Part shown: piece by piece, positions 3,118 through 64,000 of the stretch
How the letters are laid out: each line of letters begins with the position of its first letter
How positions within the stretch are numbered: position 1 is the stretch's first letter
Assembly (NCBI GenBank): GCA_030650415.1
Contig: JAUSEG010000011.1
Location: 1,687 to 65,686 of the forward strand
Length of the DNA stretch: 64,000 nt
Reading direction: 5' to 3'
Source of the DNA: a bacterium
GTDB taxonomy: Bacteria; Patescibacteriota; Patescibacteriia; Patescibacteriales; GWC2-42-12
Translations under genes and position numbers: made by a program
Notes under the pieces: generated by a model
Database searches by the model: none
What the model saw: the letters and a program-made list of their open reading frames with translations, nothing else
What the model was told of the DNA's origin: nothing

Positions 3118-3442
3118 AGGTTTCTAAAAATTGTTATTTTATATATATTATCGCCTAACGGTCTCGACTACTCTTATTATAATCCTTGTTTAAAAATCTG
3201 TCTAAATATTTTGGCTAGGCCAATTTTCCTAAAAAAGTCAAATTTCTATTTTTAGATAACATTTTTAACAAGAACTCTTTTAATAACCTGGGTTTTGGAC
3301 TATAATTAGATTAGTGAAATTATCTAATAAAAATATTATCATAATTTCGCATAACAAACAAATAAAGACTGATTCTACACGATTAGGTCGAAATTTTAAA
3401 AAACAAACTTTTTCATTTTTAATTGAGTCCTTTTAGAATTAA

Positions 3443-3498: not shown

Positions 3499-3981
3499 CT
3501 AAACACCGATTATTTTGACCTTGGGACATTCTTGAAAAACGGCTTTCTTTTTTTCGATTCGCGCCTTCATTGTGAAGACGTATATCTCATCAAACCCAAG
3601 GTCGTAGGCCTTGACGAGATCGTCGCCGTTGATCGGACACAAAGCTGAGCCGGCGTAGAGAATTGGCGGAACAACGGTTACGCCCTTACCAACGAACTTG
3701 TCTTGGAGTCTTCTTTCTTCATGCTCCAGAACGTCGCACATAATTATCCGTTCTTCCCATGTCTTTGTCACCCTGCGACCGAGTTCGTCGTATTCTACGG
3801 CATACCCAGCTTTTTCCAACGCGGCGCTAATTTTTGTTCCGCCTCCGCAGATGACTACGACGTAATTGCTTTGCGCTTTTTCAACAACGAAATCAAAGAA
3901 CTGCTGGCTGTCGGTGATATCACCTGAGCCTTTAACTAGAATGTTTTTCATTTTACACCCTCCACTTTTTGGATTTGCCAA
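3499..3981 (-). CDS. Short (160 aa) protein with an amino-acid-kinase-like (carbamate kinase fold) N-terminus. Function unknown.
   Basis: NILVKGSGDI...VVVICGGGT resembles the N-terminal ATP-binding Gly motifs of aspartokinase/UMP kinase family proteins, but the protein is far too short to be a canonical member. Confidence 0.3.
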   Translation of the reverse strand: MANPKSGGCKMKNILVKGSGDITDSQQFFDFVVEKAQSNYVVVICGGGTKISAALEKAGYAVEYDELGRRVTKTWEERIIMCDVLEHEERRLQDKFVGKGVTVVPPILYAGSALCPINGDDLVKAYDLGFDEIYVFTMKARIEKKKAVFQECPKVKIIGV

Positions 3982-4269: not shown

Positions 4270-4488
4270 ATGCGCAAAATAGACCTAAAATCAGTTGTTT
4301 GGAAAGAGGGAAAATATTATGTTTCTCAATGTTTAGAAGTTGAAGTCTCAAGTTTTGGTAAAACCAAAAAAGAAGCCTTGGCTATGTTGCAGGAAGCATT
4401 AGAATTATATTTTGAAGATATTCCGTTACCGAAAAAAGCTGAAGTAAAAAATCCGATTATTGCTTCGGTAAAGCTTCAATATGCCTAA
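4270..4488 (+). CDS. hicB: HicB-like antitoxin (short, RNase-H-like fold only).
   Basis: This 72 aa UPF0150-type sequence (YYVSQCLEVEVSSFGKTKKEALAMLQEALELYFE) overlaps the downstream hicA by 8 nt. Confidence 0.6.
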   Translation: MRKIDLKSVVWKEGKYYVSQCLEVEVSSFGKTKKEALAMLQEALELYFEDIPLPKKAEVKNPIIASVKLQYA

Positions 4489-4729
4489 ACCCTACCCACT
4501 GCGCATCGTCCTAAAAGTCCTTCTTAATAAGGGCTTCTTTTTTGTTTCGCAAAACGGCTCGCACGCCAAGTACCGTTGCCACCACGATCAAGAATTAACT
4601 GTAATCGTTCCGCTGCATGGCAAAGAGATTCGTTATGGCACTTTCAGGTCTATCTTACGCCAAGCTAAACTAACTGAAGAAAATTTTAAAAATAAAATAA
4701 GTCAAACTTCCAATATTCGGATACGTTAA
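4481..4729 (+). CDS. hicA: HicA mRNA-interferase toxin (YcfA family).
   Basis: This 82 aa protein contains GSHAKY...PLHGKEIRYGTFRSILRQAKL, the HicA dsRBD-like motif with the catalytic His. Confidence 0.65.
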   Translation: MPKPYPLRIVLKVLLNKGFFFVSQNGSHAKYRCHHDQELTVIVPLHGKEIRYGTFRSILRQAKLTEENFKNKISQTSNIRIR

Positions 4730-4738
4730 ACATAAATT

Positions 4739-5353
4739 ATGACTGGTAATAACACCTGGACGGCAAAACTTAAGAGAACGTTAACTTCAGTTTTGCCAAT
4801 CGCAAAAAATCGGACCGGCCAATGCCTTAATTGCGGCGCCTGCTGCAGACTGCCCAATGTCTGTTATTTCCTAAAATATAAATCCGACGGCAGTTCTTAT
4901 TGCTCAATCCATTCGCTTAGGCCGCTGAATTGCAGAAAATACCCCCGAACCGAAGCTGAACATATTACTAAAGAGACTTGCGGATTTAAATTTAAATATA
5001 ATAAAATATTAAAAAATAATTTTAATAACATGATAACTTACGAAGACTTCAAAAAACTGGAAATCAAAATCGGTAAAATAAAATCCGCGGCCAAAGCCGA
5101 AGGCGCGGATAAACTTTTAAAACTAATTTTTGATATCGGTGGCGAAGAACGGCAAATTATGTCCGCAATTGCCGAATACTATCCTGACCCGAGCGTCTTA
5201 GTCGGAAAAATGATACCGATCTTAACTAACCTTGAGCCCCGCACATTTAGAGGGCACCTTAGCCAGGGCATGATTATTGCCGCCGACCTCGACGGTTATC
5301 CGATACTCTTGCATCCGGAAAAAGAAATACCGGCCGGAAGCATGATTATATAA
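4739..5353 (+). CDS. Fusion protein: an N-terminal YkgJ-type CxxCxxCC zinc/iron-chelating domain plus a C-terminal CsaA/EMAP-like tRNA-binding domain.
   Basis: CLNCGACCRLP...CSIH...LNCRKYP forms the N-terminal domain. The C-terminal IKIGKIKSAAKAEGADKLLKLIFDIGGEERQIMSAIAEYY...GMIIAADLDGYPILLHPEKEIPAGSMI matches the tRNA_bind (Myf) domain consensus. Confidence 0.6.
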   Translation: MTGNNTWTAKLKRTLTSVLPIAKNRTGQCLNCGACCRLPNVCYFLKYKSDGSSYCSIHSLRPLNCRKYPRTEAEHITKETCGFKFKYNKILKNNFNNMITYEDFKKLEIKIGKIKSAAKAEGADKLLKLIFDIGGEERQIMSAIAEYYPDPSVLVGKMIPILTNLEPRTFRGHLSQGMIIAADLDGYPILLHPEKEIPAGSMII

Positions 5354-11559: not shown

Positions 11560-11686
11560 ATTGTCATTGCGAACAACTACCACTCCACTGTCATTCCCGC
11601 GCAGGCGGGAATCCATTTCCACTAAAATTTCTGGATTCCCGCCTGCGCGGGAATGACAAACAAAATTATGCTCCTCGCAATGACAT
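11560..11686. repeat. Compound nested-palindrome repeat, family B (tgtcattcccgcgcaggcgggaatcc ... ggattcccgcctgcgcgggaatgaca), flanked by tgtcattgcga/ctcgcaatgaca.
   Basis: Perfect inverted arms are read directly. The same module is at 32281, 36195, 39297 and 42093. Confidence 0.85.
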
Positions 11687-21001: not shown

Positions 21002-22792
21002 TTATGCCGCCCCGCCTGTCATGTCAGATCCCATGGCTTTATTTTGCCTGACCGAGGTTTTTTCGCTGATCCCGCGTTCTTCCGGCCTGCCTGCCCGATA
21101 GTTAGACTCTGCCTCCGAATATTTATTTTGATTTGAATAATCCGGCCTCGCTAGAGAAGCGGACTGGCCTATTTTAGACAATTCTTTTTCCTTAGCTTCC
21201 AGCCGTGATTTTACCTCTTGCTTCTTTTCGTTTTTCACGGCAATCAAACAATCCTTGCAAAAAATCGGCCTTATCCCATCCGGTATAAAGGATATTCGCG
21301 TTGTCTTAGCGCAACGGCTGCAGACGGCATCGTGCTTGCTGCTTTCCGATTGAATATCGGCTTTCGATCTGGATTTATCCAGACTTTCGTTATTTATGGC
21401 AGACGCCGGATTTCTCGGAATTTCTTTTTTTCTTTCAGCCGCCGGCCTGGCTGAAGTTTCTCTGTCCCTGGCTGGTCTTTTCTCCGACTCTCTTTCTCCG
21501 CCGTCGCTTTCGTCGTTATTCGTGTGCCAGCGGATAATTTTATCTTCAACGGACGTTCTCGGCTTAGAATATCTTTCTCGCGAAACTTTTATAACTTTTT
21601 CTTTATTGTTGGTTTTCTCCGCCTCGCTAAAAGGCGGCAAACCTCTAGCCGAAAAAGGATCGGAGGAAACTCCGTCAATCATTAATTTTATGTAAAATTC
21701 ATATTTAGTCAAATTTACTAAGTCTTCCTCTAAAAATACCGGGGTAAATTCTTTAACTAGCTCTTCGGCGTCAGTCGCGCCGACTCGAAAAACAATTAAC
21801 GTGCCGACGTTGCCGAAAACCGCCGGCTTAACGATTTCGCCGAGCTGCTCGATATATTGATGAGCCATAACTAGATTCAGCCGATATTTTCTGGCCTCGG
21901 ATAAGATATTGGCAAAACTGTCGGTCGTAAAATTTTGAAATTCATCAATATAAAGATAAAAATCTTGGCGATCTCTTTCCAATATATCAACCCGGCTCAT
22001 AACCGCCAGCTGCACCTTAGTAATCATCATGGCGCCTAAGAGCGCCGAATTATCTTCGCCGATTCTGCCCTTGCTTAAATTCATAATCAAAATTTTTCCG
22101 CTATCCATGACTTCCCTTAAATCGATGGTTGATTTAACCTGGCCGACGATATTTCTGATTAAAGAGCTTGATAAAAACTGCCCGACTTTATTTTGAATCG
22201 GCGAGACCGCTTCGGAAGCGAAATTATTGGCATAGCCGGCGAATTCGTTGACCCAAAAAGATTTAACCACCGGATCCTGAATTTTTTCAATAACTTTTTT
22301 TCTAAAATTCTTATCAGAGAGCATTCTGGTAATCGCCAGGAGCGTTGAGTCAGGATAATCCAAAATCGCCAAAATGGCATTCCTTAAAATATACTCGAGC
22401 CGAGGCCCCCAGGAATCGGCCCAGAGTTTTTTAAAAACTCCGATTAAGCCGGAAGCAACCAAGTGCCTTAAGTGCGGCTCAACCTTTTCGACCACGTTAA
22501 AGGCGATCGGGTAGTCCATATCGGCCGGATTGAAATAAATTACATCATTAACCCGGTTAGCCGGTATATAATCAATAACTTTTTCGGCTAAATCGCCATG
22601 CGGATCAACCACCATCACGCCTTTTCCAGATCTAATATCGTCAATAATCATATTTTCTAAAACCGTGGACTTACCCATGCCGGTTTTTCCAACCAAGTAC
22701 ATATGCCGGCGGCGATCGTCGATTTTAATGCCGAACTTTCTATGTTCGTTGCGGAAGTTGGTTTCGGCGAAAACTGTAATTTGATCTGACAT
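21002..22792 (-). CDS. VirD4/TraG/TrwB-like P-loop ATPase (type IV coupling-protein family) with a disordered, charged C-terminal tail and a CxxC...CxxC zinc ribbon.
   Basis: Walker A YLVGKTGMGKST; Walker B LYIDEFQNF; a TraD/TraG-like C-region AHQYIEQLGEIVKPAVFGNVGTLIVFRVGATDAEEL; a C-terminal CSRCAKTTRISFIPDGIRPIFCKDC. No TM segments in this ORF. Confidence 0.55.
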   Translation of the reverse strand: MSDQITVFAETNFRNEHRKFGIKIDDRRRHMYLVGKTGMGKSTVLENMIIDDIRSGKGVMVVDPHGDLAEKVIDYIPANRVNDVIYFNPADMDYPIAFNVVEKVEPHLRHLVASGLIGVFKKLWADSWGPRLEYILRNAILAILDYPDSTLLAITRMLSDKNFRKKVIEKIQDPVVKSFWVNEFAGYANNFASEAVSPIQNKVGQFLSSSLIRNIVGQVKSTIDLREVMDSGKILIMNLSKGRIGEDNSALLGAMMITKVQLAVMSRVDILERDRQDFYLYIDEFQNFTTDSFANILSEARKYRLNLVMAHQYIEQLGEIVKPAVFGNVGTLIVFRVGATDAEELVKEFTPVFLEEDLVNLTKYEFYIKLMIDGVSSDPFSARGLPPFSEAEKTNNKEKVIKVSRERYSKPRTSVEDKIIRWHTNNDESDGGERESEKRPARDRETSARPAAERKKEIPRNPASAINNESLDKSRSKADIQSESSKHDAVCSRCAKTTRISFIPDGIRPIFCKDCLIAVKNEKKQEVKSRLEAKEKELSKIGQSASLARPDYSNQNKYSEAESNYRAGRPEERGISEKTSVRQNKAMGSDMTGGAA

Positions 22793-22794
22793 AA

Positions 22795-22897
22795 TAAATG
22801 CAAATGAATTATGAATAATGAATTATGAATAATGGAATTTTACTGATTAATTTTTGCGTTTTCCATAATTCATAATTCATTATTCCTAATTCATCTA
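22795..22897. repeat. MITE-like inverted repeat, family C2 copy.
   Basis: gaattatgaataatgaattatgaataatgg...ttttccataattcataattcattattcctaattc. Confidence 0.75.
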
Positions 22898-24361
22898 TTA
22901 TACCACCGGTAAATTGCTTGGCGGTTCGGCTTTAATTATAATCTGGGGTTTTATGTCGCCCCCGCCGCTATCCAGATTAAATATATCCGATCCGGAACCG
23001 CCTCCGGCCAGCTCTTCAACCGCCCGATCTCTGATTACCGGCAAACTGGACGGCGGTTCGGCTTTTCTGCCCGGCGCTTTCTGAATCGAAGGCGATTTAA
23101 CCGAAGCCTCAACCGGAAAGTGCCAAATTGTGGCCAGCTCTTCGGTATTAAGTATATGCGGCATGCGCCCTCTAATATCGCTCCGATATTTATAAGCGAT
23201 CATTAATTTCATTTTCCTGGCATTAAGGCGGGATTTGCCGAAAATCATATTATACTTCAGCTTGGTTATGGTGCCGTAGTCGCCAACGTCCGGTTTATAT
23301 GAATTTAAATCATTAAAATTAAATTGCTTCATGTAGCCGGTAAAACCATAACTGACTTTATTTTTATTAATTACTTCTTTCCTGGCCACATAAGCATATC
23401 TGATTTTTACTTCAAAACCTAATTTACCGACCTTCTCCTGAATTTCCTCTATCTGCCTTTTCTGCTTTGGCTTTAAATTCATCATCTTAAATTGTTCCTC
23501 TTTTTTTTCCGGTTTTTTATCGTCTTCGATGTCTGACCAGAGAGGATAGATTATCTCACTTATAAAAGTCATCGATTTCACCAGGCTATCTGAAAGTTTA
23601 TCAACTAAATTGTTCCTGCTGGTTTTTTCGCCGATGATCCTTTTTATTTCCTCGTCGCCTTCTTCCGCCCAGTCCTGGCCGATCGGTATTACCAGTATCT
23701 GATACCATAATTGCTCGCCCTTCTTTAAACTGCCCATTAAATCCATCAGCGCGGCCATCGGATCTTTAAACTGGGTTTCCGGCTCGCCCATAGTATGTTC
23801 AAAGTGCTCATAAGTCTTAATCGGATAAACCGAATTTTCAATCAACTTAAATTCCCCGCCGAAAACATCATATTGATCATCAGGATACTTTGTCGGAAAA
23901 CCCTCGGTATAATCATTAACTTCGGTAATCTCCGCGTCAGGATATTGCGAATAAATCGCGGCGTCAACCAAATAACGGTATTTTTCCGGCGCCCAGATTA
24001 AAAATTGAATATAGCCGTCAATGCTGACGATCTCAAAGCTGAAATATAATTGCCACTCTCCCTTCCACCATTTTTCATAAAGATCCTGAGTGCTATGGGC
24101 GCCGGCCAGATAGGCAAAAATATTTTCCACGGCCCTGGGCGTTTGAGCGTTGCCTCGGGGAATATCAATCGCCAATAAAATGGTTTTTTGTTTCGCGCCA
24201 AAAGCCAGTCTTATATATCTAAGCCAGACCTGAGTGGTCCCCCAAACGAAGGCAATAGCCAGCGGAATCCAGCCTACATAGAGAAGCACATATAACAACA
24301 GCTGATCCGAGGGCAAACTTAAAAAATTTAAAATTGGCTGTAAATCTATGACTATATTCAT
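22898..24361 (-). CDS. Membrane-anchored hypothetical protein (two N-terminal TM helices and a ~430 aa soluble domain with a Lys/Glu-rich segment). Likely partner of the downstream VirD4-like ATPase.
   Basis: LLLYVLLYVGWIPLAIAFVWGTTQVWL TM region. The gene is separated from the ATPase by one repeat only, on the same strand. Confidence 0.45.
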   Translation of the reverse strand: MNIVIDLQPILNFLSLPSDQLLLYVLLYVGWIPLAIAFVWGTTQVWLRYIRLAFGAKQKTILLAIDIPRGNAQTPRAVENIFAYLAGAHSTQDLYEKWWKGEWQLYFSFEIVSIDGYIQFLIWAPEKYRYLVDAAIYSQYPDAEITEVNDYTEGFPTKYPDDQYDVFGGEFKLIENSVYPIKTYEHFEHTMGEPETQFKDPMAALMDLMGSLKKGEQLWYQILVIPIGQDWAEEGDEEIKRIIGEKTSRNNLVDKLSDSLVKSMTFISEIIYPLWSDIEDDKKPEKKEEQFKMMNLKPKQKRQIEEIQEKVGKLGFEVKIRYAYVARKEVINKNKVSYGFTGYMKQFNFNDLNSYKPDVGDYGTITKLKYNMIFGKSRLNARKMKLMIAYKYRSDIRGRMPHILNTEELATIWHFPVEASVKSPSIQKAPGRKAEPPSSLPVIRDRAVEELAGGGSGSDIFNLDSGGGDIKPQIIIKAEPPSNLPVV

Positions 24362-24409
24362 GAGGATCTATTAATCAATTAGTTACTGCTATTTTACCAT
24401 ATTTCGCCA

Positions 24410-24445
24410 AATAAAAAAACACCCCGCAAAATGCGGGGCGTATTT
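24410..24445 (-). terminator. Rho-independent terminator downstream of the sigma-like gene.
   Basis: On the minus strand, ccccgcattttgcgggg is followed by tgttttttta. Confidence 0.55.
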
Positions 24446-24482
24446 TTATGAGATATCGTCAAGTTCTTAAATTTGGCTTAAA

Positions 24483-25709
24483 TTACTTTTCGGTTAGAGC
24501 TCTATCTTTAATTGCATATTTGCCGTCTGAAGCCGGCTCAAATTTATCCCGATTCATCAAAGCCAAGTTAATCGTCGCCTTCTTAACCATTCTTTGCCCC
24601 AAAACTTTATTAATAATTTCTTCGCGGTTTAGCGGGCGATCGGCTTCTATCATGACTTTTTCAATTACTTCGGTGACCGTGCCTTTCTCATAGCCCCATT
24701 CCTTTAAGCCGTAAAGGCCGCGTCCGACTAAAATATATTTATCGTCTAAAATCAATTCATTATGAACCGTAGCCGCGTTGGCCTGCTTTTTATCAAAACC
24801 GATTTGATTGATTCTATCGGCAATCTCGGCGAAATGCATGGGCTTGCTGTTATTTTTTAGAATTAAATAAATTTTATCATTAATAGTCTTGGGCTTAATC
24901 TCGCGCGATTCATCAATGCCCCAATGGCCGAATTTATTCTGTTCAATTTTCTTAGCGGCTTGAAGAACCGAATAAAGCGCTTTGTTTTGATTAATGAAGT
25001 CGGCCGGCTCCTTGAATAAATTGCTGACTAAGACACCGGAAATATCAAGATTATTGGTTTGCTTGAATTTATCTTCGCTGGCCTTATAAGCGCTAAGCTC
25101 TTTTGATAAGTTAATCAGATCTTCGGTCATGAAGATTTTTTTAGCTTCTCTGACTTTAGCTAAAAGTTCAACAGTCAAATTTTCCAGATGCTCAAGCGAC
25201 TGATATTTCAATTTTAAAGATTCTTTAAAAACTGCCGAATCATTGATTTCCTCGAATTCACTATGCAATAACCGGGAAATTAAAAAGTCAAAATGGCGCT
25301 TATGCTTTATCTCATTTTCTTCTTTTTTGCCGGCGCCAATGGAAAAGTTAACTAAATTATTAAATAAGTATTCCTTTTCCATAAATCCGCCATGTTCTTC
25401 CAGTAAATGGATAATAACATTTTTCAAACCGGACAAATAGCTATCCAAATTTTCCAGCTGTTTCAGCCGTTTGATGCTTGAAGTTTCGATTTGCCTGATC
25501 CTTTCCCTGGTTAAACTATGGATCTTGCCGATTTCCTCCAAAGTTTCCTTATCATCGCCATGCAAGCCGAAGCGCCTGACTAAAATATCGCGCTCTCTTT
25601 CGTTGAGTTCGCTGAATAAACCATTGATAATTTCAATCGCGTCAAGCATGGCCACTTCTTCGGCTTGGTGATTATTGATTATTTGGTCTAAGATGGATTT
25701 ATTTTCCAT
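24483..25709 (-). CDS. Sigma-70 region-4 (HTH) domain protein with a C-terminal HARE-HTH domain. Putative RNAP-associated regulator.
   Basis: The N-terminus ERDILVRRFGLHGDDKETLEEIGKIHSLTRERIRQIETSSIKRL is sigma70 region 4. The C-terminus MHFAEIADRINQIGFDKKQANAATVHNELILDDKYILVGRGLYGLKEW is a HARE-HTH (RpoE-delta-like) domain. No region 2 is recognisable. Confidence 0.55.
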   Translation of the reverse strand: MENKSILDQIINNHQAEEVAMLDAIEIINGLFSELNERERDILVRRFGLHGDDKETLEEIGKIHSLTRERIRQIETSSIKRLKQLENLDSYLSGLKNVIIHLLEEHGGFMEKEYLFNNLVNFSIGAGKKEENEIKHKRHFDFLISRLLHSEFEEINDSAVFKESLKLKYQSLEHLENLTVELLAKVREAKKIFMTEDLINLSKELSAYKASEDKFKQTNNLDISGVLVSNLFKEPADFINQNKALYSVLQAAKKIEQNKFGHWGIDESREIKPKTINDKIYLILKNNSKPMHFAEIADRINQIGFDKKQANAATVHNELILDDKYILVGRGLYGLKEWGYEKGTVTEVIEKVMIEADRPLNREEIINKVLGQRMVKKATINLALMNRDKFEPASDGKYAIKDRALTEK

Positions 25710-26219
25710 AATTCGGTGAACTCATTACAAGTCTTAATATTTTATTATTCACTAAAACAAAATTTCTTTTCTACGATTCTCGCCCCGAGCTTGTCGAGGG
25801 GTAGAATTTCTATAAATTGCCGGGGGAAAATTATATTAAACAAGATAAATTAACTTCTGTCTATATTTAATTAATATTGCTTTACGCGGTCAATTTTTAC
25901 TCTGATTTATTTTATGAAAACATATTAACATATTTTTTTTTATAAGTCAAGGGGTATTATAATAATATCTATAATTAGCCATATATATTAAACAATCTTA
26001 ATTTCTAAATAAATTTGCAGCCATAAAAAATCTTAAAATAATTATCTAATATTAACACTAATTTTTATATAGGTTGACATTTATACTGACTTATGATACG
26101 GTATTTTATCGTTCATTAAAAAATTTATGTCTGTGAAACTGCCACTAGACGACTATAAGTAGCCGCCTGATTGCAGTTTCGCAGTATAAACAAACCAAAA
26201 ACAAAAAACAAGTAAAACT

Positions 26220-26426
26220 ATGAGAAAATCATTCCTTTGGCTCTTCGGCTGCATCGCTGGGCTTATCCTCGCAATCGTGCTGTCGTTCAAAGCCAGCACC
26301 ATCAAAATCGTGCCGGTGCAAATTACCAACTCGCAAACCGAGACATCGGTAACTCTGGCGCCTGTCGCGCCGGAGTCCAATCGGGTGACGGTTAACTTCA
26401 GCGGTGTCCAACCGGTCATCAAGTAA
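26220..26426 (+). CDS. Small (68 aa) signal-peptide/TM protein in the GC-rich island.
   Basis: MRKSFLWLFGCIAGLILAIVLS hydrophobic N-terminus. GC-rich codons and an A/C-rich SD-less leader. Confidence 0.4.
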   Translation: MRKSFLWLFGCIAGLILAIVLSFKASTIKIVPVQITNSQTETSVTLAPVAPESNRVTVNFSGVQPVIK

Positions 26427-26463
26427 TGTCGGTCAACAAAAACAAAAAAACAGCAGAAACAAA

Positions 26464-27636
26464 ATGAAAAAAACAATGTCGGTAATAGCACTGGCGCTTC
26501 TCGCAGCCAGTGTAATGTTCGCTCAAGACCTTCCACCCGTCTCCGGTGGCGACAATTCAGGCGGAGGCGGATCGGGCGGTGGCGGTGGAAGCTCTGTGCC
26601 GCCAACCTTCACGGGGCCTGACAAGGTGCCGTTGGCTTCGCCAAAGGTGCTACAGGCCTACGCCCTGACCCTGGTCGGAACGATAGGAGTGCAAGTGTAC
26701 GGAAATTCGGTCTCCGGCGACAGTTATCGCTGGGTGGACTACCCGTACGAGGATGCCGACCCCGATCGCATGGCCAGCATAGCCAGTTCGATCGAGCTGA
26801 AATTCAGCGCAACCACGGATGATCAACTGACTTCATGGGTGTCGTATAACAGTCGAATGTTCACCCTGACAGACCCGGATGAAAATGAAGTCACAACCGC
26901 ATTTGGCTTGTTCAACGGAGGCAAAAACTTCAAGCTTGAATACTTCAAAGATGCGTGGCGGGTGCCTACCAACGCCTACGCTGTTGAACTTGAGGTTGGC
27001 CAAGTTCCTTGGGTAGTCCCTGGGATGAGAAATGCCTACATCACGACTCGAGATGAAAAAGGCAACTACACCGGATACTACGATTTCCGGCAACAGCAGG
27101 GCGACTACTGGCTGGATCGCGGGGTTATATTCCTTACCGAGCAACTGACCTCTCGCCGCGGAGACCTAACCACGATTTTGGAAAACGGTTCCAAGGTCGT
27201 CTATGACATCACAAGCGGTTGGCGAAAATACTCGCCGACGATCAAGGGTAGCGGCTTCAAGCCGACGATCAAAGGGATTCGGACCGTGCCTGACAATACG
27301 ATTGATATTGTTTATCGGGAAACAGACGAAATCGTCAGAGTCGCCTACACTGGGGATTATCACGGCTCAAACACGTTTCAAAATGTGTTTGTGGAATTCC
27401 CTGGAGAACTGAAGCGGTATCCGGCCAAAGTTTTTGTCATCGACACGAGACTCTTGGCGTTAAACCCTGACGCCGAATGGCTGGAATTCAATCCGTATGT
27501 TGAGCCGGTATGGTTCAGGATGAAAGTCGGCCAAGCCGTGCTCATCCGCTTCGAGTACCAAATCGATCCGGAGCCGCTGGACAATGGTGGCGGCGGTAAG
27601 GGCGCCAAAGTCGCGCCAGTCAAGCTTGAGGAGTAA
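26464..27636 (+). CDS. Secreted hypothetical protein (signal peptide, Gly/Ser linker, ~330 aa domain of unknown function). The start was set at MKKTMSV.
   Basis: MKKTMSVIALALLAASVMFAQD signal peptide, a GGGGSGGGGGSS linker, GC ~55% against ~37% for the flanks, and a terminator at 27669-27706. Confidence 0.55.
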   Translation: MKKTMSVIALALLAASVMFAQDLPPVSGGDNSGGGGSGGGGGSSVPPTFTGPDKVPLASPKVLQAYALTLVGTIGVQVYGNSVSGDSYRWVDYPYEDADPDRMASIASSIELKFSATTDDQLTSWVSYNSRMFTLTDPDENEVTTAFGLFNGGKNFKLEYFKDAWRVPTNAYAVELEVGQVPWVVPGMRNAYITTRDEKGNYTGYYDFRQQQGDYWLDRGVIFLTEQLTSRRGDLTTILENGSKVVYDITSGWRKYSPTIKGSGFKPTIKGIRTVPDNTIDIVYRETDEIVRVAYTGDYHGSNTFQNVFVEFPGELKRYPAKVFVIDTRLLALNPDAEWLEFNPYVEPVWFRMKVGQAVLIRFEYQIDPEPLDNGGGGKGAKVAPVKLEE

Positions 27637-27668
27637 CCCCAAGCAAATTTTGCACCTTCAAAAACAAC

Positions 27669-27706
27669 AGCGCCAGCTTCACCTCGAAGCCGGCGCTCTT
27701 TTTTTA
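27669..27706 (+). terminator. Rho-independent terminator of the island transcript.
   Basis: agcgccagcttc-acctc-gaagccggcgct followed by ctttttttt. Confidence 0.6.
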
Positions 27707-27722
27707 CTTAAAATTTTCCTTC

Positions 27723-27861
27723 TGTCATTGCGAGAAGTAAAATTCATTCGTCATTCTGGAGGGAGCGTCAGCGACCGATAGAATCTCATAATATAACATG
27801 AGATGCTATCGCTCCACTTCGTTCCGCTCCAGCATGACAAAAAAAGTCGCTCGCAATGACA
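27723..27861. repeat. Compound nested-palindrome repeat (outer tgtcattgcgag/ctcgcaatgaca, inner family A).
   Basis: Three concentric inverted-repeat pairs are read directly. The element is nearly identical to 31113-31259. Confidence 0.85.
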
Positions 27862-27871
27862 ATCATTATAT

Positions 27872-28825: not shown

Positions 28826-29016
28826 GCTGTCATTGCGAGCCGCCCTTGTAATCAAGGCGGCGAAAAAATTGTCATTGCGGGCTTGACCCGCAATCCAGGT
28901 TTCAATTTCACAAATGACTTATATAATTATTAACCTTATAAACAAAACTATTTAGTTTTAAATCTGGATTCCGGCCTGCCTACCGGACAGGCAGGCTCGG
29001 AGGCCGGAATGACAAT
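28826..29016. repeat. Two adjacent palindromic modules (tgtcattgcgagccgcc.../ttgtcattgcgggcttgacccgcaatcc and ggattccggcc...ggccggaatgaca).
   Basis: Read directly. They share arms with the elements at 40672-40905 and 45165-45350. Confidence 0.75.
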
Positions 29017-31100: not shown

Positions 31101-31112
31101 TATATTTATTAT

Positions 31113-31259
31113 GTCATTGCGGGCTATTATTCTTTCTGTCATTCTGGAGGGAGCGCCAGCGACCGATAGAATCTCGCTGTAAACACTCTAACCATGAGAT
31201 GCTATCGCTTCACTTCGTTTCGCTCCAGCATGACAAGAAATTAGTCGCTCGCAATGACA
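31113..31259. repeat. Compound nested-palindrome repeat (family A inside tgtcattgcggg/ctcgcaatgaca).
   Basis: Read directly. Confidence 0.85.
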
Positions 31260-32280: not shown

Positions 32281-32500
32281 TTTCTCTTTGTCATTCCCGC
32301 GCAGGCGGGAATCCAGGGGTTAGCAGTAAAAATATACTGCTTTCTCTAAACCCTACACAATATAAAAATTTTAAATTAGCGCACGCTCAGTAAAAATATT
32401 CCTACTTCTCCCTCCTGGATTCCCGACAGCCTTCGGCTTCGGGAATGACAGACTAAAAAAAGACCGCTTCGCTTCATTCCTCGCAATGACAAATTATCTT
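32281..32500. repeat. Composite family B element (tgtcattcccgcgcaggcgggaatccaggggttagcagtaaaaat...ctccctcctggattcccg...gggaatgaca...ctcgcaatgaca).
   Basis: Closely related to 42093-42320. Confidence 0.8.
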
Positions 32501-39276: not shown

Positions 39277-39296
39277 AAATTATTTATTGTCATTGC

Positions 39297-39415
39297 GGGT
39301 AATTAAATAAAGCAATCTTCCCCATTCTGTCATTCCCGCGCAGGCGGGAATCTAGAAAACGTATTTATACCTCGCACCCCTAGATTCCCGCTTTCGCGGG
39401 AATGACAAAATAAAC
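39297..39415. repeat. Family B compound element upstream of secA.
   Basis: ttgtcattgcgggtaatt...tgtcattcccgcgcaggcgggaatctag...tagattcccgctttcgcgggaatgaca. Confidence 0.8.
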
Positions 39416-40671: not shown

Positions 40672-40905
40672 TGTCATTGCGAGCCGCCCTCTTTTTTGTC
40701 ATTCCGGCCTTTAAGCCGAAGGCTCGCCCCGTTAAATCCCTACGGGACGCAAAGCGTATTTAACGGGGCGAGCCGGAATCCAGGTTTTGGCGCTAAGAAC
40801 AAATTTCTGGATTGTCGTGGCTTCGCCAGATCTCGCGTAGCGATGACGAGGTCAAGCCCGCAATGACAAACAAAAATTAAACTCCTCGCAATGACGTTAG
40901 GTTAT
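40672..40905. repeat. Composite palindromic repeat region (tgtcattgcgagccgcc, tgtcattccggcc...ggccggaatcc, ggcttcgccagatctcgcgtagcgatgac, cgcaatgaca x2).
   Basis: Read directly. The modules are shared with 28826-29016, 42230-42320 and 45165-45350. Confidence 0.8.
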
Positions 40906-42092: not shown

Positions 42093-42320
42093 TTTGTCAT
42101 TCCCGCGCAGGCGGGAATCCAGGGGTGAGCAGTAAAAATGCATTCCACCACCCTAAACTCTATATGATATTAATATTTTATAAAAGCGTGCGAACATTAA
42201 TAATGGTCCTGCTACTCCCTCCTGGATTCTCATGGCTTCGCCAGATCTCGCGTAGCGATGACCGATAGCCTTCGGCTTCGGGAATGACAAGAAGAATTAG
42301 GGGTTCTCGCAATGACAGTT
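42093..42320. repeat. Composite family B element, near-duplicate of 32281-32500.
   Basis: tgtcattcccgcgcaggcgggaatccaggggtgagcagtaaaaatgc...ctccctcctggattc...ggcttcgccagatctcgcgtagcgatgac...gggaatgaca...ctcgcaatgaca. Confidence 0.8.
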
Positions 42321-44093: not shown

Positions 44094-45113
44094 CTATATG
44101 CTCGCCGCCACATTTTCCAGCGTTAACTTGGGATTTACATTATTCGCCAAATATTCTTTAGCTTGCTTTAGGGCGTCAATCAAACTTAGCAAAGATTTCA
44201 TGCTCAGTTTATTTTTTACCGCTGACAATTCTTCGTTAAAAGCTTCGTGCTGAATTAAATCGGCTAAATTTAATTCCATGAGCATTAAATCTCTGATTAG
44301 GTTTTGCCAAACATCAATAATTTTTCCGACTGACTTAACCGCTTCTTGCCCGCGCGCATTTTTCCCTAAAATATTTTCAATCGCTTTAAAGCGCTCGTTA
44401 ATATCCAGGTTCAATAATCCAACAAAGCCTTGAACATTGGCTTTGTAATTTTCATAATATTCTTTCTCCTCTAAAAACTTTAAAGCTATCGCCGGCCGGC
44501 CGGCCGACAAACGGGAAAAATTTTTAGCCTGGCTCCTCTGAGCGCCATGATTTTTAATCAAATCATCATAAATCATATCGCTTTTTACCGGCTGAAATCT
44601 TAAAATTTGGCTGCGCGAAACTATGGTCTTAGGCAGGGTTTCAAAATCCGTGACAGTTAAAATTATTACTACTTTAGCTTTGGGTTCTTCTAAAGTTTTT
44701 AGAAGCGCGTTAACCGCCCCCTCGCTTAGGGCTTCCGCGCCCTCGATAATGCCGATTTTATAAGAATTTAAAAACGAACTTAACCCCAGGCTTCTGATAA
44801 AATCTCTAACCTGCTCGATAGAAATATTTTTTTTATCAGCCTCTTTTTTTATTAAATAAATATCGCCATGAATTCCCTTAAGAGCCTCTCGACAGGCCGG
44901 ACACTTGCCGCAAGGCAGAGTTAATTGATCCTTGGCTTCGCAGACCAGGCTTTGCGCAAAAAAATTAGCGGCCGTGGCCTTGCCTAAACCGGCCGGACCG
45001 GTAAATATATAACTGCCGGAAATGTTTTTATTAATTAAGCTTTTAGCTAAAAATTCAAAAATATGGCTATTGCCAATTAATGGCCAGCTTAATTTGACTT
45101 TTGTTTCTTCCAT
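44094..45113 (-). CDS. holB: DNA polymerase III delta-prime subunit (clamp-loader AAA+).
   Basis: FTGPAGLGKATAANFFAQSLVC...CGKCPACREALKG (Walker A plus Zn module). The start was moved to MEETKVKL (the upstream 54 codons are repeat-encoded). Confidence 0.7.
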   Translation of the reverse strand: MEETKVKLSWPLIGNSHIFEFLAKSLINKNISGSYIFTGPAGLGKATAANFFAQSLVCEAKDQLTLPCGKCPACREALKGIHGDIYLIKKEADKKNISIEQVRDFIRSLGLSSFLNSYKIGIIEGAEALSEGAVNALLKTLEEPKAKVVIILTVTDFETLPKTIVSRSQILRFQPVKSDMIYDDLIKNHGAQRSQAKNFSRLSAGRPAIALKFLEEKEYYENYKANVQGFVGLLNLDINERFKAIENILGKNARGQEAVKSVGKIIDVWQNLIRDLMLMELNLADLIQHEAFNEELSAVKNKLSMKSLLSLIDALKQAKEYLANNVNPKLTLENVAASI

Positions 45114-45164
45114 AAATAAATTATAGCTTTTAAAGACGAATAAGTCAAAAAAGTTCAAATCCTG

Positions 45165-45350
45165 ATTGTCATTGCGAGGAGCCCTGTAATCAGGACGACG
45201 CAACGGTCTTACTGTCCTGTCATTGCGGGCTCCGACCTCGTCATCGCTACGCGAGATCTGGCGAAGCCACGACAATCCAGAAACTTACGCTAAATATATA
45301 AATCTGGATTCCGGCTCGCCTTCGGCTTAAAGGCCGGAATGACAATACTT
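45165..45350. repeat. Composite palindromic repeat region.
   Basis: tgtcattgcgaggagccctgtaatcagg...cctgtcattgcgggctcc...catcgctacgcgagatctggcgaagcc...ggattccggc...gccggaatgaca. Confidence 0.8.
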
Positions 45351-45392
45351 TTTTTGCTTGCTTTTTTCCCTTCTTTCTGTTATATTAGCCAC

Positions 45393-46733
45393 ATGAATAA
45401 TAAACTCAAAAAATTAGTTTTATTCGGCGGAGACATAGTTCTCCTGTATTTTTCCTTATATTTAACCCTTATAATTAGATACTGGGGAAAATATACGGAT
45501 CTGACCTGGTCTAATCATTTTTGGCCATTTACTCTGATCTTTATCCTCTGGGTACTGATTTTTTACATTTCCAATCTTTACAATCTTAATCTGGCCGTAA
45601 ATAATTTTAAATTTTACCAATCAAGCGGCCGCGCCATAATAATTTCCGGGCTGGTTTCTTTGGCTTTTTTCTATTTATTACCCCAAGTCGGCATCGCGCC
45701 AAAAAGAAATCTATTCATCTACATTATAGTTTTCGCGGCTATTTTCTATCTCTGGCGCCAATTTTATAATTGGTCGTTAAAGTCATATCTGCCCAAAATA
45801 AATATCGGCATAGTCGGCTATAATAATTTAACGGCGGAAATTATAAATGAGTTTAAACAGAAGCCTCATCTCGGCTATAACTTAAGCTTTATCGTTGACG
45901 ATAAAACGCAGACCGGAACTCAGCCGATTTCCGAATTGGAAGAATTAATCGCTAATAATAAACTGGATACCATAATATTATCCAGCGACCCGCACCAGTC
46001 GGAAAGTTTAAGAACCGCTTTATTTAACAGCTTGCCTTATAAAATTAGCTATATTAGCCTGCCGAATTTTTACGAAACCATTACCGGCAAAGTTCCGCTG
46101 GATTCGGTTAATCAAATGTGGTTTCTAGAAAACTTGAATGAAAATAATAAAATTTGGTTTAACCGGCTGAAAATAATCTATGATTTTATTCTGGCCTTAA
46201 TAATTTTTATTATCACTTTGCCTTTTTGGATTATCATCGCGATAATAATAAAAATTGAAAGCCGCGGACCGATTTTTATTATTATGGAACGACTGGGAAA
46301 AAATAATAAAGTTTTTAAATTGATAAAATTCAGGACTATGCGGGAAGAAGACAATGATCGCTCGCCCACCCGGGCTAATGATCCGCGTATTACTAAATTC
46401 GGTAATATTTTAAGAAAAACCAGGCTTGACGAACTGCCACAGGTAATAAATATTTTGCGCGGTGAAATGAGCTTTGTCGGTCCGAGGCCGGAACGGCCGG
46501 AATTATCTGAAAATCTGGAAAAGCAGATCCCCTTCTATGGCCAGAGAACCTTGGTTAAACCCGGCCTAACCGGTTCCGATCAAATCTCCGGCGAATACCA
46601 TTCGCCATCGCAAGCCGACAGCTTAAAAAAATTGCAATACGATCTCTTCTATATAAAAAACCGGTCCATATTTCTGGACCTGGCTATTATTTTAAAAACT
46701 ATCGCGACGGTTTTAAGCCGAAAGGGAATGTAA
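45393..46733 (+). CDS. Polyprenyl-phosphate sugar phosphotransferase (WbaP/exopolysaccharide 'sugar transferase' family, initiating glycosyltransferase).
   Basis: N-terminal TM helices. The C-terminal catalytic domain contains RPGLTGLWQVSGR-like (KPGLTGSDQISG) and DLxYI motifs. Confidence 0.8.
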   Translation: MNNKLKKLVLFGGDIVLLYFSLYLTLIIRYWGKYTDLTWSNHFWPFTLIFILWVLIFYISNLYNLNLAVNNFKFYQSSGRAIIISGLVSLAFFYLLPQVGIAPKRNLFIYIIVFAAIFYLWRQFYNWSLKSYLPKINIGIVGYNNLTAEIINEFKQKPHLGYNLSFIVDDKTQTGTQPISELEELIANNKLDTIILSSDPHQSESLRTALFNSLPYKISYISLPNFYETITGKVPLDSVNQMWFLENLNENNKIWFNRLKIIYDFILALIIFIITLPFWIIIAIIIKIESRGPIFIIMERLGKNNKVFKLIKFRTMREEDNDRSPTRANDPRITKFGNILRKTRLDELPQVINILRGEMSFVGPRPERPELSENLEKQIPFYGQRTLVKPGLTGSDQISGEYHSPSQADSLKKLQYDLFYIKNRSIFLDLAIILKTIATVLSRKGM

Positions 46734-46758
46734 TATAAAAATTAACAAAACTATTTTT

Positions 46759-47436
46759 TTAATCCTTTAATTGCCTAACGATTTCAAACGCCTCGGCGTT
46801 TTTATAACCAACCTCTAAGCCCCGATACTGCGCCAAAATTCTTATGCCTTCTTTTGAACGAGGATGCGGATAAGCTTTCAATTCTTCTCGGTAAACTTCC
46901 ATGGCCTTCATTTTTTGATTAATAAAATTATCGATGTCATTATAATAAGTCGGGCAGAACAAACTCTTTTTCTTTTTCGCCTGCCATTCGGTTGACGACA
47001 GAACCTCAAAGGCCAAAATATTTTTAACAAAAAACTTCGGCTGCGGCCGGCAGGCGGTCATTACCGCCTGAAAAGTCAGGCGATGGTCAATATTTAAATC
47101 ATCGCCAAAATGCGTGTAGACTAAAGACGGTTTTATCGCATAAACTATTTTTTCCACCTTTTTCACGATTTCCAAAAGCGGTACGGAATCAAATTTATTA
47201 TCAGGCAAGGTCTCTAAAAAAACTTTTCCGGCTCCCAGTATTTTAGCGGCCAGCTTGGCTTGATTGGCTCTCTTTTTAATATCGGCGGCATTGGCGCCCC
47301 TGGAAGTAACACCGTCGCCTAAGAGCAAAATGCTTACTCTATCACCGGCCTTGGCGTGTTTTAAAATTGTGCCGCCGGCGCCGATGACTTCATCGTCCGG
47401 ATGAGCGGCAATCACTAAAATTTTATTTCTACTCAT
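46759..47436 (-). CDS. PIG-L/LmbE-family N-acetylsugar deacetylase.
   Basis: IAAHPDDEVIGAGGTI zinc-binding motif. Confidence 0.75.
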   Translation of the reverse strand: MSRNKILVIAAHPDDEVIGAGGTILKHAKAGDRVSILLLGDGVTSRGANAADIKKRANQAKLAAKILGAGKVFLETLPDNKFDSVPLLEIVKKVEKIVYAIKPSLVYTHFGDDLNIDHRLTFQAVMTACRPQPKFFVKNILAFEVLSSTEWQAKKKKSLFCPTYYNDIDNFINQKMKAMEVYREELKAYPHPRSKEGIRILAQYRGLEVGYKNAEAFEIVRQLKD

Positions 47437-48157
47437 ATAATTTCTGATTAGTTAATAAATCTTGTTTTGTGATATTGCCTGACATTAAAACTTCTAAACT
47501 CCTATCGCCTTCATTAAATAATAAATCAATAATGCTCATACAGGGCGAAAAACCTTTCCCTAACTGCTTATACTTCGGGTGATTGTAATCTTGAAAATAT
47601 ATTTTGACGCCGGCCGCAACGAATTTTTCCTTTTCGGCATAATCTTTGCCTAAAGCGCCAAAAATATAAATATCGGCTTTTAGCTTTTTGCACATATCTA
47701 ATACCAACTCCGATTTATAGCCTTGAAATTTTAACTCCGAGGCCTTAGAATAATCAACTTTGATCCCCAACTGCTCTAAAAACCACTTCAGCATATATTC
47801 ATTAAGCTCGGATAAAAACTGCCAATCTCTTTTGTAAGTCTGCTCTAAAAATTCCGCGTATTTATCAAAATAAGGGGCTTTTTTATAATTTAAATAAATG
47901 GATTTCCAATGTTTTTTCCGCCAGTCCAGGCCGTTATTAATTTCTATCTCCCCAATTTTTTTTTCACGATAACCGTTAGTTAAAACCGGCACGGTTAACC
48001 AAATGTCGCCGTTAGCGGTTTTTATTTTATTTCGACTATTAAAATCCTTAACTTGATATTGCACATCGTCAAAATAGCAATAAGCGTCACTGCAGGCGAT
48101 CTTATGGAAAAGGCCCAACCAAGGCAGGTAAACTGGTTGATGAGCGGTTAGAATCAT
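47429..48157 (-). CDS. WbqC-family protein (polysaccharide/O-antigen locus protein).
   Basis: LTAHQPVYLPWLGLFHKIACSDAYCYFDDVQY matches the WbqC-like family N-terminus. Confidence 0.6.
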   Translation of the reverse strand: MILTAHQPVYLPWLGLFHKIACSDAYCYFDDVQYQVKDFNSRNKIKTANGDIWLTVPVLTNGYREKKIGEIEINNGLDWRKKHWKSIYLNYKKAPYFDKYAEFLEQTYKRDWQFLSELNEYMLKWFLEQLGIKVDYSKASELKFQGYKSELVLDMCKKLKADIYIFGALGKDYAEKEKFVAAGVKIYFQDYNHPKYKQLGKGFSPCMSIIDLLFNEGDRSLEVLMSGNITKQDLLTNQKLYE

Positions 48158-48186
48158 ATAATCGGACCTAACTGGCTGAGTTAAAT

Positions 48187-49524
48187 TTAATTATTATTTT
48201 TATTTTTTTCTAATTGTTTGACAATAAGTTTTTCAACTTCTTCACTGGGAAAATCGTCAATATCGCGTTCGCGCCACTTTTTTTGCGCTAACATAATATA
48301 AGGCTCAATCAGTTGCCAATCTTCTCCGGGAAAATTTTTCCGAGAATTATCCTGACGAAAACAAAGTCCGGTTATCCAGTAAAGCGGAGAGATCATCAAT
48401 TTTAGATTACCCCAGCCTTCCATGGTTGTTGGTGGAACGAATTTTGGATAACCGTCTACTCCGTTGACTGCGTCTTGGTACATTGGCGTCCCCGGATAAG
48501 GCGCGTAATTAAAAATAGAAACCCGGGCGTTCGGATCGTTCTCTATCAACCAATCTATCATATCTAAAGTATCATTAAGTTGAGCCTTGGTTTCTCTGGG
48601 CATATGCGCCATAAAACTATACATCACCGATATCCCCGATCCTCGAAAAAGCTTAGCCGCATTTTTTATTGTCGCTACGCCTTCGCCCTTTCTGATAATA
48701 TTTCTTAGAAAAAAATCATTGCCTGACTCACAGCCGATTTCTAAAGAATAACAATTCGATTTAGCCAAAGCTTCGACCATTTCTGGGGTAATATAATTAG
48801 CGCGAATATTGCCATCCCATTTCACCTTAATATCTCTCATAATTTCCCCAATCTGGTTAATTCTCTCAACGCGATCTATTGCCACCATTTTGCCGCCGAC
48901 CCTATAAACACCGCAAGCAATATTAGGGTCAGAGAAGGACATCTCCTTAAAACCAATATCTTTATGGATAATCTTTAATTCTCGGTCTACATCATTAATA
49001 TCTTTGGGCTCCCAGGGAGAACTCAAAGTGCAAAACGAACAACCGAAAGGACAGCCGCGAGAAGTAAAATATTGCATATCGGTCCGCTGAAAATGAATTT
49101 TAGTATGCTCATTGTAGGGGAATAAGTCTTCTCCGTAAACTCTCTCGGTCCAAATTTTATCTACAAAAGGTTCGGCCAAAACTTGCTCCGGCAGAATACG
49201 GGCGTGGTGGCCGCCAAGACCGGCGGTAATGCCGGGTTTAATTTTTTTCGCCAGCTTTAAAATCCTGGCTGCGCGGCCGGTTTGATAACCAGTAAAAGCA
49301 CTGACGCCGATTTCTTTCGAACGTTTTATTAAATCCATGAGCATCTCGTCAGAATCAAACCGCTCGTCAAAATATTCAACTCTAAGCCCCTGCTTTTCAA
49401 ACATCGCTCCGGGAAATAAAATTGATAAAGGCAAATACTTAGTCGGAGAATCTTGAGTTGGCTTGGGATAAGCCAATAAAATGTCGATTAATTTCATAAT
49501 TTTATAATTAATTTTTTCTCGCAA
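48187..49524 (-). CDS. Radical SAM enzyme with a B12-binding N-terminal domain (class B).
   Basis: The radical-SAM cluster motif CPFGCSFC and an upstream Rossmann-like B12-binding region. Confidence 0.7.
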   Translation of the reverse strand: MREKINYKIMKLIDILLAYPKPTQDSPTKYLPLSILFPGAMFEKQGLRVEYFDERFDSDEMLMDLIKRSKEIGVSAFTGYQTGRAARILKLAKKIKPGITAGLGGHHARILPEQVLAEPFVDKIWTERVYGEDLFPYNEHTKIHFQRTDMQYFTSRGCPFGCSFCTLSSPWEPKDINDVDRELKIIHKDIGFKEMSFSDPNIACGVYRVGGKMVAIDRVERINQIGEIMRDIKVKWDGNIRANYITPEMVEALAKSNCYSLEIGCESGNDFFLRNIIRKGEGVATIKNAAKLFRGSGISVMYSFMAHMPRETKAQLNDTLDMIDWLIENDPNARVSIFNYAPYPGTPMYQDAVNGVDGYPKFVPPTTMEGWGNLKLMISPLYWITGLCFRQDNSRKNFPGEDWQLIEPYIMLAQKKWRERDIDDFPSEEVEKLIVKQLEKNKNNN

Positions 49525-50197: not shown

Positions 50198-50205
50198 ATC
50201 TATAA

Positions 50206-50637: not shown

Positions 50638-50641
50638 AAAA

Positions 50642-52308: not shown

Positions 52309-52311
52309 AAA

Positions 52312-58019: not shown

Positions 58020-58023
58020 AAAT

Positions 58024-59016: not shown

Positions 59017-59020
59017 ATAT

Positions 59021-60457: not shown

Positions 60458-60478
60458 AAAAAATAAATAATTAAAATT

Positions 60479-61513: not shown

Positions 61514-61523
61514 AAATTTAATA

Positions 61524-63711: not shown

Positions 63712-63721
63712 AATATTAAAG

Positions 63722-63991: not shown

Positions 63992-64000
63992 CTCCGATAT

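Follow-up and report, generated by a model that had tools for sequence, protein, structure and literature searches.

The window analysed here is a stretch of 64,000 nucleotides from contig JAUSEG010000011.1 (assembly GCA_030650415.1, positions 1,687 to 65,686 of the forward strand) of a bacterium placed in the Patescibacteriota, and its segment at 26150-27710 carries two plus-strand genes, one for a 68-amino-acid (aa) protein and one for a secreted 390-aa protein (together referred to below as the pair). The reading that we favour, with a probability of roughly 0.6, is that the segment is a relocated or transferred operon of an orphan family of Parcubacteria type, with an excess of guanine plus cytosine (GC) that is specific to its genes, and that it likely encodes an abundant envelope protein. 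An earlier interpretation drawn from the letters of the DNA (the sequence-only reading) had taken the segment for a recent horizontal acquisition with Bacteroidetes-like signals; the insertion at this site is borne out by two syntenic relatives in which the pair is absent (L017 and L018), but the foreign, Bacteroidetes-like donor is not.

These two relatives, one on a 154-kb ENA contig (L017) and the other in assembly GCA_964526325.1 (L018), encode proteins that are 60-95% identical to those of the window, and all three share the order SecA … SecD-SecF-MreB-MreC-MurB-sigma70_r4/HARE-HTH-DUF8128-TrwB-DUF1361-GT2. The gap between murB and the sigma-like (sigma70_r4/HARE-HTH) gene is 191-357 bp in the two relatives, and tblastn searches do not find the pair at this site in either; because the two genes lie this close together without the pair, ~1.9 kb of sequence is inserted or relocated between them in the window. 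The extra sequence extends roughly from 25961 to 27870 and is made up of an upstream region, promoter and leader, the two genes with their terminator, and a repeat resembling a miniature inverted-repeat transposable element (MITE). On the left, the host-native sequence ends with the promoter of the sigma-like gene (CCTTGACTTATAAAAAnAAATATGTTAATAT; 25911..25955, minus strand), in which a promoter scan identifies TTGACT-17-TAATAT with a TG at 25950..25922 on the minus strand; a ~40-nt block here is near-identical in the window, L017 and L018, and conservation ends at ~25960. On the right, the 3' end of murB aligns with both relatives, and the murB terminator that they carry (AAGGCTAATTTTAGCC) is missing from the window. 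A second assembly (Logan, SRR13727527; contig L016) is 100% identical over 22805-27779, joining the DUF8128 and sigma-like genes to the spacer and the complete pair and so crossing the left junction, and it breaks inside the repeat at 27779.

The sequence-only reading had bounded the segment on its left with an AT-rich spacer of ~450 bp (25710-26150). This interval is indeed AT-rich (24.9% GC), but ~250 bp of it (25710-25960) belongs to the sigma-like gene as its native promoter and leader. There is no integrase or transposase gene among the neighbours, no tRNA in the window, and no target-site duplication at the insertion site; the sole repeat flanking the unit is an AT-rich 18-nt imperfect inverted match, and one MITE-like element abuts its right end.

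The large protein is 100% identical to the NCBI entry 'hypothetical protein Q7K35_01780 [bacterium]', and among 5.8 billion proteins it has 11 other close homologues with 34-58% identity, one of them from a Candidatus Paceibacterota metagenome-assembled genome (MAG), the sole named taxon besides '[bacterium]'. A profile search of 1.8 billion representatives returned 130 clusters at E<=1e-3, nearly all of them 330-390 aa in length and unannotated, and a profile word-index search yielded three further members; scans of GTDB and JGI contigs gave no loci beyond those already recovered. Genomic contexts were recovered for nine loci including the window, and all are Parcubacteria-like and poor in Shine-Dalgarno (SD) motifs. 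Most of the 130 clusters come without genomic context and a look-up of them yielded no names of taxa, and the taxonomic range of the family, which rests on these nine contexts and the named homologues, appears so far to be confined to Parcubacteria/Paceibacterota-type (Patescibacteria) genomes. Among the close homologues and the nine contexts none is attributed to Bacteroidota, most of the 130 clusters being without context, and the donor proposed earlier thus finds no counterpart in the homology searches, in which Candidatus Paceibacterota is the only named relative and nine of nine contexts are Parcubacteria-like. No copy of the family was found on the phage, plasmid or IMG/VR viral contigs searched, and carriage as phage or plasmid cargo was rejected.

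In five of the loci (L001, L003, L004, L010 and L012) the small and large open reading frames (ORFs) lie beside a divergent gene for alanine racemase (alr), and in four of these the pair is followed by L33, miaA, parB and topA, the contig of L012 stopping just past the pair. The large protein of L010 is ~20% identical to other members, yet it is alr-linked. Elsewhere the pair is found between a tRNA gene and gmk (L013) and downstream of a 79-aa ORF (L020), and with the murB-sigma site of the window as the fourth there are four different contexts among the nine loci. A quick neighbour-joining tree places the window protein as sister to that of L020 (64% identity) and nested among the alr-linked members; because of this nesting the alr position looks ancestral and the window position derived, and the location beside alr is the common one for the family and probably the ancestral one. 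A small ORF of the same build precedes the large gene in all eight of the other loci (8/8), and the closer relatives have the promoter type in common, along with long leaders, strong terminators, and intercistronic leaders that are mostly A/C-rich. The transcription unit moved as a whole.

The segment at 26150-27710 has a GC content of 51.9% as compared with a window mean of 40.1%, and in a sliding-window analysis, which the sequence-only reading had called for, it tops all 1561-bp windows (z 4.3), the second-ranked window having 46.3% GC. The compositional anomaly is therefore real, although it had been overstated as an island of ~55% GC in surroundings of ~37%. The two coding sequences have GC contents of 0.531 and 0.535, and GC at third codon positions (GC3) is 0.696 in the 68-aa gene (z 5.6) and 0.614 in the 390-aa gene (z 3.95), against 0.42 +/- 0.049 for the 55 other ORFs of the window, so that the sharply different codon usage described earlier is upheld; GC at first and second codon positions is likewise elevated in both genes. 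Within the window the excess is limited to the two coding sequences (53% GC), with 18% in the promoter region (25961-26107), 24% in the A/C tract, and 32% in the intercistronic leader.

A similar excess accompanies the family in its other genomes. GC3 of the pair lies above that of the local genes in all eight genomes measured (8/8), with a margin of 0.08 to 0.38; for the large gene compared with the mean of its neighbours the values are 0.58 and 0.38 in L001, 0.42 and 0.32 in L003, 0.63 and 0.43 in L004, 0.41 and 0.33 in L010, 0.54 and 0.25 in L012, and 0.69 and 0.32 in L013. In L020 the whole-gene GC of the pair is 0.53-0.55, as against 0.33 in the flanking ORF. Relatives that carry the same genes with the same composition, which the sequence-only reading had itself regarded as telling against recent acquisition, are thus what the comparison finds. 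Because synonymous sites are saturated at 20-58% identity and a donor signature would not persist at a vertically inherited locus, the excess must be kept gene-specifically; and because it is common to all homologues and limited to coding sequence, the composition does not report a donor. By this codon evidence the GC-richness is a maintained trait of the family and not the fingerprint of a donor.

The amino-acid share of the excess consists of more T, V, G and P and less K, I, L and E. At two-fold sites of the window pair C is used over T at a frequency of 0.65, compared with 0.30 in the rest, with marked preferences for TTC (0.82 vs 0.21), TAC (0.67 vs 0.21) and ATC (0.62 vs 0.20) and hardly any TTA (0.03 vs 0.40). 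The use of G over A increases just slightly, and CAA is preferred, not reduced. This pattern, in which the C-over-T preference and the avoidance of TTA come without a matching rise in G, fits expression-linked codon selection and not a uniformly GC-rich donor. In the pairs of relatives both C- and G-ending codons are raised; GC3 of L33 is elevated too in three relatives, and that of L21 in L004 is not. We favour selection for high expression as the force that would lie behind the codon bias, with GC-biased gene conversion at a frequently exchanged locus as the main alternative.

Another ORF of the window has an island-like codon signature. It encodes a 150-aa cytoplasmic protein (MKNILVKGSGD…; 3499-3951, minus strand) with no family match, and has a C/(C+T) of 0.59 at two-fold sites against a window mean of 0.25, no TTA, and a GC3 of 0.50. 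The ORF is flanked by AT-rich sequence and ends in a terminator of its own, a HicB-like/HicA toxin-antitoxin pair (4270-4729, plus strand) is next to it, and the second assembly breaks at 3418, just ahead of it.

The inserted unit has the parts of a self-contained operon. Its AT-rich upstream region (25961..26073, plus strand), where the intergenic alignment with L017 and L018 stops, is missing from both at the corresponding site and appears to have arrived with the unit. The putative promoter of the pair (26074..26102, plus strand) consists of TTGACA, a 17-nt spacer ending in TGa, and TACGGT, and is of the extended -10 type; the consensus promoter scan missed it, its -10 matching at only three of six positions, and promoters of the form TTGACA-N17-(TGn)TAnnnT that precede the pair in L001, L003, L004, L012 and L020 align with it. 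Three AT-rich 26-nt direct repeats with a spacing of 63-64 nt lie in this neighbourhood (25922-25947, 25985-26010 and 26049-26074), the first coinciding with the native sigma-like promoter and the second and third lying in the inserted upstream region before the -35 of the pair.

The 5' leader (26108..26219, plus strand) comprises a long hairpin at 26124-26190 followed by an unstructured A/C-rich tract (26191-26219) that runs into the start codon without an SD motif. It folds with -25.8 kcal/mol (z -3.9), and none of 200 shuffled sequences is equally stable. The small gene (26220..26426, plus strand) is separated from the large gene (26464..27636, plus strand) by an A/C-rich intercistronic leader (caacaaaaacaaaaaaacagcagaaacaaa; 26427..26463, plus strand), also without an SD motif, and A/C-rich intercistronic leaders are present in L001, L003, L012, L013 and L020 as well. 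The A+C fraction in the 30 nt before the start codon is 0.90 for the small gene and 0.93 for the large one, as compared with ~0.5 elsewhere, and is unique in the window; the two A/C-rich leaders, correctly noticed by the sequence-only reading together with their lack of an SD motif, are direct repeats of each other (26196-26217 and 26437-26458).

In relatives a common 5' leader of ~130-150 nt stands upstream of the small ORF (L001:9575-9690, L003:9535-9681, L004:7100-7251, L012:6150-6270 and L020:~470-597), with a 5'-terminal hairpin that shows some compensatory changes, the motif ATTTTnnTTCnTTnACAnnCACATA, and a hairpin of the form TTTCGC-loop-GCGAAA. A consensus fold of these leaders gives support for the 5' hairpin alone, and the leader of the window is remodelled into one long hairpin, unlike the layout in relatives. 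Rfam contains no family that matches the leader of the window, the window as a whole, or the leaders of the relatives.

The pair is followed by an intrinsic terminator (27669..27706), a 13-pair hairpin (27669-27697) with a U7 tract and a stability of -19 kcal/mol (z -5.1), in agreement with the clean terminator described before; it is bidirectional by its sequence and probably now also serves the convergent murB. The MITE-like repeat, with perfect 12-nt inverted termini (TGTCATTGCGAG), occupies 27723..27861 as previously placed, in the gap that separates the terminator from the stop codon of murB (27872). Across the window its terminus is found 16 times where 0.18 occurrences are expected, and the copies (e.g. 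11562-11685, 27723-27861, 28828-28881, 31112-31259, 32480-32491, 39288-39299, 40672-40896, 42306-42317 and 45167-45229) are mostly intergenic, with some within gene ends. The 21-kb syntenic locus of L018 has a single copy, and that of L017 has none. A role for the element as the border of a composite transposon was rejected, there being no second copy on the left side.

The unit had been described as the only one on the plus strand, which holds locally; 4270-5353 and 45339-46733 of the window lie on that strand as well. Outside the insertion, the DUF8128 gene (22898-24361, minus strand), whose product also matches a PHROG of unknown function, adjoins a gene for a TrwB/TraG-like coupling ATPase with a C-terminal zinc finger (21002-22792, minus strand), and since they are syntenic in L017 and L018 the two form a stable chromosomal pair that is not part of the inserted unit.

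The large product, whose secretion signal had been recognised and whose length is 390 aa and not 391 as first given, has a signal peptide (MKK…LLAASVMFA|Q), a Gly/Ser linker, a core of ~325 aa, and a tail of 10 aa after a C-terminal GKG (27595-27603); the cleavage position before Gln (…VMFA|QD) was read off the sequence and not predicted by a tool. The mature protein would have 369 aa with a mass of 40.9 kDa and a pI of 4.8, with no Cys and one His. An AlphaFold2 model built with 12 homologues shows an all-beta multidomain core with a pLDDT of 80 overall and above 90 for most of the core, and a disordered N-terminal linker and last 18 residues. The absence of a recognised motif from the large domain, already remarked upon, is confirmed: neither protein of the pair, nor any of 48 family members, has a match in Pfam, NCBIfam or PHROGs, and no toxin, enzyme or known adhesin domain was found in these libraries. 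A PDB sequence profile search gave nothing below an E value of 0.26, and a PDB fold search shows weak resemblance to botulinum HA70/HA3, collagen-binding and C2-like domains.

The Gln at position 21 is conserved in at least 90% of close homologues, and 'AQ' is present in most of the N-termini inspected across the wider family. Of the 124 full-length members, GKG terminates 47 and KG 65, and in ~10, the window protein included, GKG is followed by a tail of ~10-12 residues; no NCBIfam sorting-signal model matches this C-terminal GKG. In the 68-aa product a basic N-terminus is followed by one transmembrane helix, a P/T/V-rich linker, and a conserved C-terminal strand motif, RVTVxFxxxxPVIK, and the small ORFs of closer relatives end in the motif RVTVxYxxxPVIK. 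The 68-aa product had been described as a signal-peptide protein; there is no obvious cleavage site, and it looks like an uncleaved N-terminal membrane anchor.

The gene content of the window includes SecA, SecD/F, MreB, MreC, MurB, an M50 protease, a TrwB-like ATPase and large clusters for glycan synthesis, and the closest named relatives of its MreB are in Candidatus Falkowbacteria, Parcubacteria and 'Patescibacteria group' MAGs, which makes the host Falkowbacteria/Parcubacteria-like by this protein. Only one of 57 window ORFs has an SD-like motif in the usual position, the related loci have 0-2 such motifs each, and loss of the anti-SD motif from 16S rRNA has been reported in a Parcubacteria subgroup (PMC9297842). 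On these grounds initiation without an SD motif is a habit of the host itself and not a Bacteroidetes signature, which removes the support that the sequence-only reading had drawn from the A/C-rich leaders, SD-less starts being normal in the window and in all related loci. The signal peptide had been offered as a second Bacteroidetes-like feature, and its end, …A|Q, does resemble the Bacteroidetes Q-rule, in which the signal peptide is followed by Gln (PMC5837995); two other secreted proteins of L013 have no Gln at +1, however, and in this small sample the +1 Gln looks like a feature of the family.

The large surface-glycan cluster of the window lies at 45000-64000 and continues in L014, 10 kb past the window end. 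It is low in GC (33-39%) and includes genes for nonulosonic-acid synthesis, with NeuB, CMP-sugar transferases, DegT aminotransferases, epimerases and radical SAM enzymes among its members. The flanks of the window contain only glycan-biosynthesis genes and no ribosomal-protein genes.

Among the competing explanations, a transfer between Patescibacteria lineages, in which a surface-protein locus that evolves fast would owe its GC excess to repeated exchange together with GC-biased gene conversion and not to expression-linked selection, is possible and accounts for several of the observations. The unit is absent at the syntenic site of L017 and L018 and its family occupies four contexts among nine loci, the nearest homologue is just 58-64% identical even though many genomes with MreB at least 94% identical are in the database, and both C- and G-ending codons are raised in relatives. 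The only protein shared by L001 and the window outside the pair, HIT, is 32% identical, compared with ~50% for the large protein, and this leans weakly to transfer from another Parcubacterium, although HIT proteins can be paralogous. Against such exchange, the five alr loci span 20-58% identity, which argues for long vertical residence with the GC excess intact; neither integrase, tRNA nor target-site duplication accompanies the unit, and there is no phage, plasmid or viral copy; and since window proteins are ordinarily 60-80% identical to those of L017 and L018, the 58-64% homologue could be an ortholog. The unit resembles a classical islet of horizontal gene transfer in its atypical composition, its orientation opposite to its neighbours, and the empty site in syntenic relatives, and differs from one in having no integrase, tRNA target or direct-repeat scars, and in that every homologue is likewise atypical within its own genome, the deviation being confined to coding sequence.

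Patescibacteria are generally regarded as symbionts, and a second alternative, with the same origin of the unit as in the relocated or transferred operon favoured here, makes the large protein a host-interaction factor of an episymbiont, acting as an adhesin or secreted effector on a partner cell. A secreted multidomain beta-sandwich with a weak likeness to carbohydrate- or cell-binding modules, fast divergence, and the large surface-glycan clusters of the window would be in keeping with it. We consider it rather doubtful, in that a single-copy gene in syntenic, housekeeping-like surroundings (alr, L33, miaA, parB and topA) and with expression-type signals suits a core structural component better, and no toxin, enzyme or adhesin domain is found.

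Two further explanations are highly improbable. A chimera of assembly or binning, with a GC-rich segment of another organism joined at AT-rich or repeat sequence, is suggested by the abrupt change in GC and by a right junction that abuts a dispersed repeat where the second assembly breaks, but is opposed by the identical Logan contig, by the match in type between its promoter, leader, SD-less starts and terminator and those of other Parcubacteria loci, and by the right-hand repeat being a host element with its 16 termini in the window. A recent acquisition across phyla of an effector or adhesin with donor signals, from a Bacteroidetes-like or ~55% GC donor, is contradicted by the SD-less starts normal in the host and its relatives and published for a Parcubacteria subgroup, by named and context-resolved homologues that are all Patescibacteria, by a C-terminus that is a disordered GKG tail without a Por_Secre_tail or other type IX secretion system (T9SS) C-terminal domain, and by non-coding parts of 18-32% GC and a coding excess that recurs in every resident genome.

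The favoured reading of a relocated or transferred Parcubacteria-type operon would work as follows. A self-contained transcription unit, running from promoter and structured leader through the membrane-anchor gene and the gene for the secreted, acidic, beta-rich protein of 41 kDa to the terminator, would have reached the murB-sigma site either from elsewhere in the genome, by relocation, or by transfer out of another Parcubacterium. The codon bias and extracellular-type amino-acid make-up of its genes would be kept by very high expression of an envelope or surface protein, for which the TTGACA-17-TGnTAnnnT promoter, long structured leader, unstructured A/C-rich landing site and strong terminator at these loci serve as proxies. 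The large protein would be exported by Sec, with its signal peptide cut before the conserved Gln and cyclisation of the new N-terminus possible, and the small membrane protein would probably retain it on the cell surface, where the conserved C-terminal strand of the small protein could dock onto the beta-sandwich; processing or attachment may take place at the conserved C-terminal G-K-G. High expression, surface location, an association between the two products and a role for GKG are all inferred from gene and protein features.

The unit would be a strongly signalled operon for a secreted envelope protein and a membrane partner, in an orphan family. Likenesses to the Bacteroidetes substrates of Sec and signal peptidase I (SPI) that follow the Q-rule, and to T9SS cargo proteins, include the +1 Gln of most family members, SD-less starts and A-rich leaders, and the large protein has a weak fold resemblance to T9SS C-terminal domains. 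Unlike these proteins, the family is in Patescibacteria, its tail is a short disordered G-K-G, and its SD-less start is a trait of the host lineage; Pfam and NCBIfam detect no T9SS C-terminal domain (Por_Secre_tail or TIGR04183-type) in the large protein, and the T9SS cargo reading was rejected.

There are parallels among surface-layer (S-layer) systems too. In Sulfolobales SlaA and SlaB are an S-layer lattice protein and its membrane stalk, and slpA-type genes of Lactobacillus have long stabilising 5' leaders. The pair resembles S-layer units in being a two-gene unit of a secreted protein and a small membrane-anchored partner, in its consensus-like promoter, long structured leader, strong terminator and biased codons, and in a large protein that is acidic, Cys-free and rich in Thr, Val and Gly. 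It differs in that 41 kDa is among the smaller sizes for such a protein and the partner is just 68 aa long; no S-layer homology or anchoring module (SLH or CWB2) was found in Pfam, NCBIfam, PHROGs, or PDB sequence and fold searches. The C-terminus invites a tentative comparison with Braun lipoprotein (Lpp), which is covalently attached to the wall via its C-terminal lysine: in both a lysine is conserved at or near the extreme C-terminus of an exported envelope protein, and the peptidoglycan genes alr and murB are adjacent to the pair, whereas the lysine here stands within G-K-G and is not terminal, and the large protein is no lipoprotein and has no coiled coil. A bolder proposal is that the family is the major S-layer-like protein of Parcubacteria, with a strand-donating stalk, pyroglutamate at the +1 Gln, processing or wall attachment at G-K-G, and the top-expressed gene of the cell. 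We regard this as unlikely as a whole; if true, G-K-G would be a new kind of C-terminal anchoring signal, and GC-rich codons would mark the most highly expressed gene of AT-rich, SD-less genomes.

The segment is a cautionary case, in which a GC excess of 12 points, a leader without an SD motif and a signal peptide that looked like one from Bacteroidetes pointed wrongly to transfer across phyla, and it illustrates that composition alone can assign the wrong donor. The analysis also flags an orphan family of 130 clusters that lacks relatives in Pfam, NCBIfam and the PDB. Very little is known of the proteins that make up the envelope of Parcubacteria, a literature search having found no S-layer protein identified for them, and the family is therefore a concrete candidate for proteomics and cryo-electron microscopy. 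Finally, a gene-specific GC excess in SD-less, AT-rich genomes offers a handle on codon selection versus biased gene conversion in reduced genomes.

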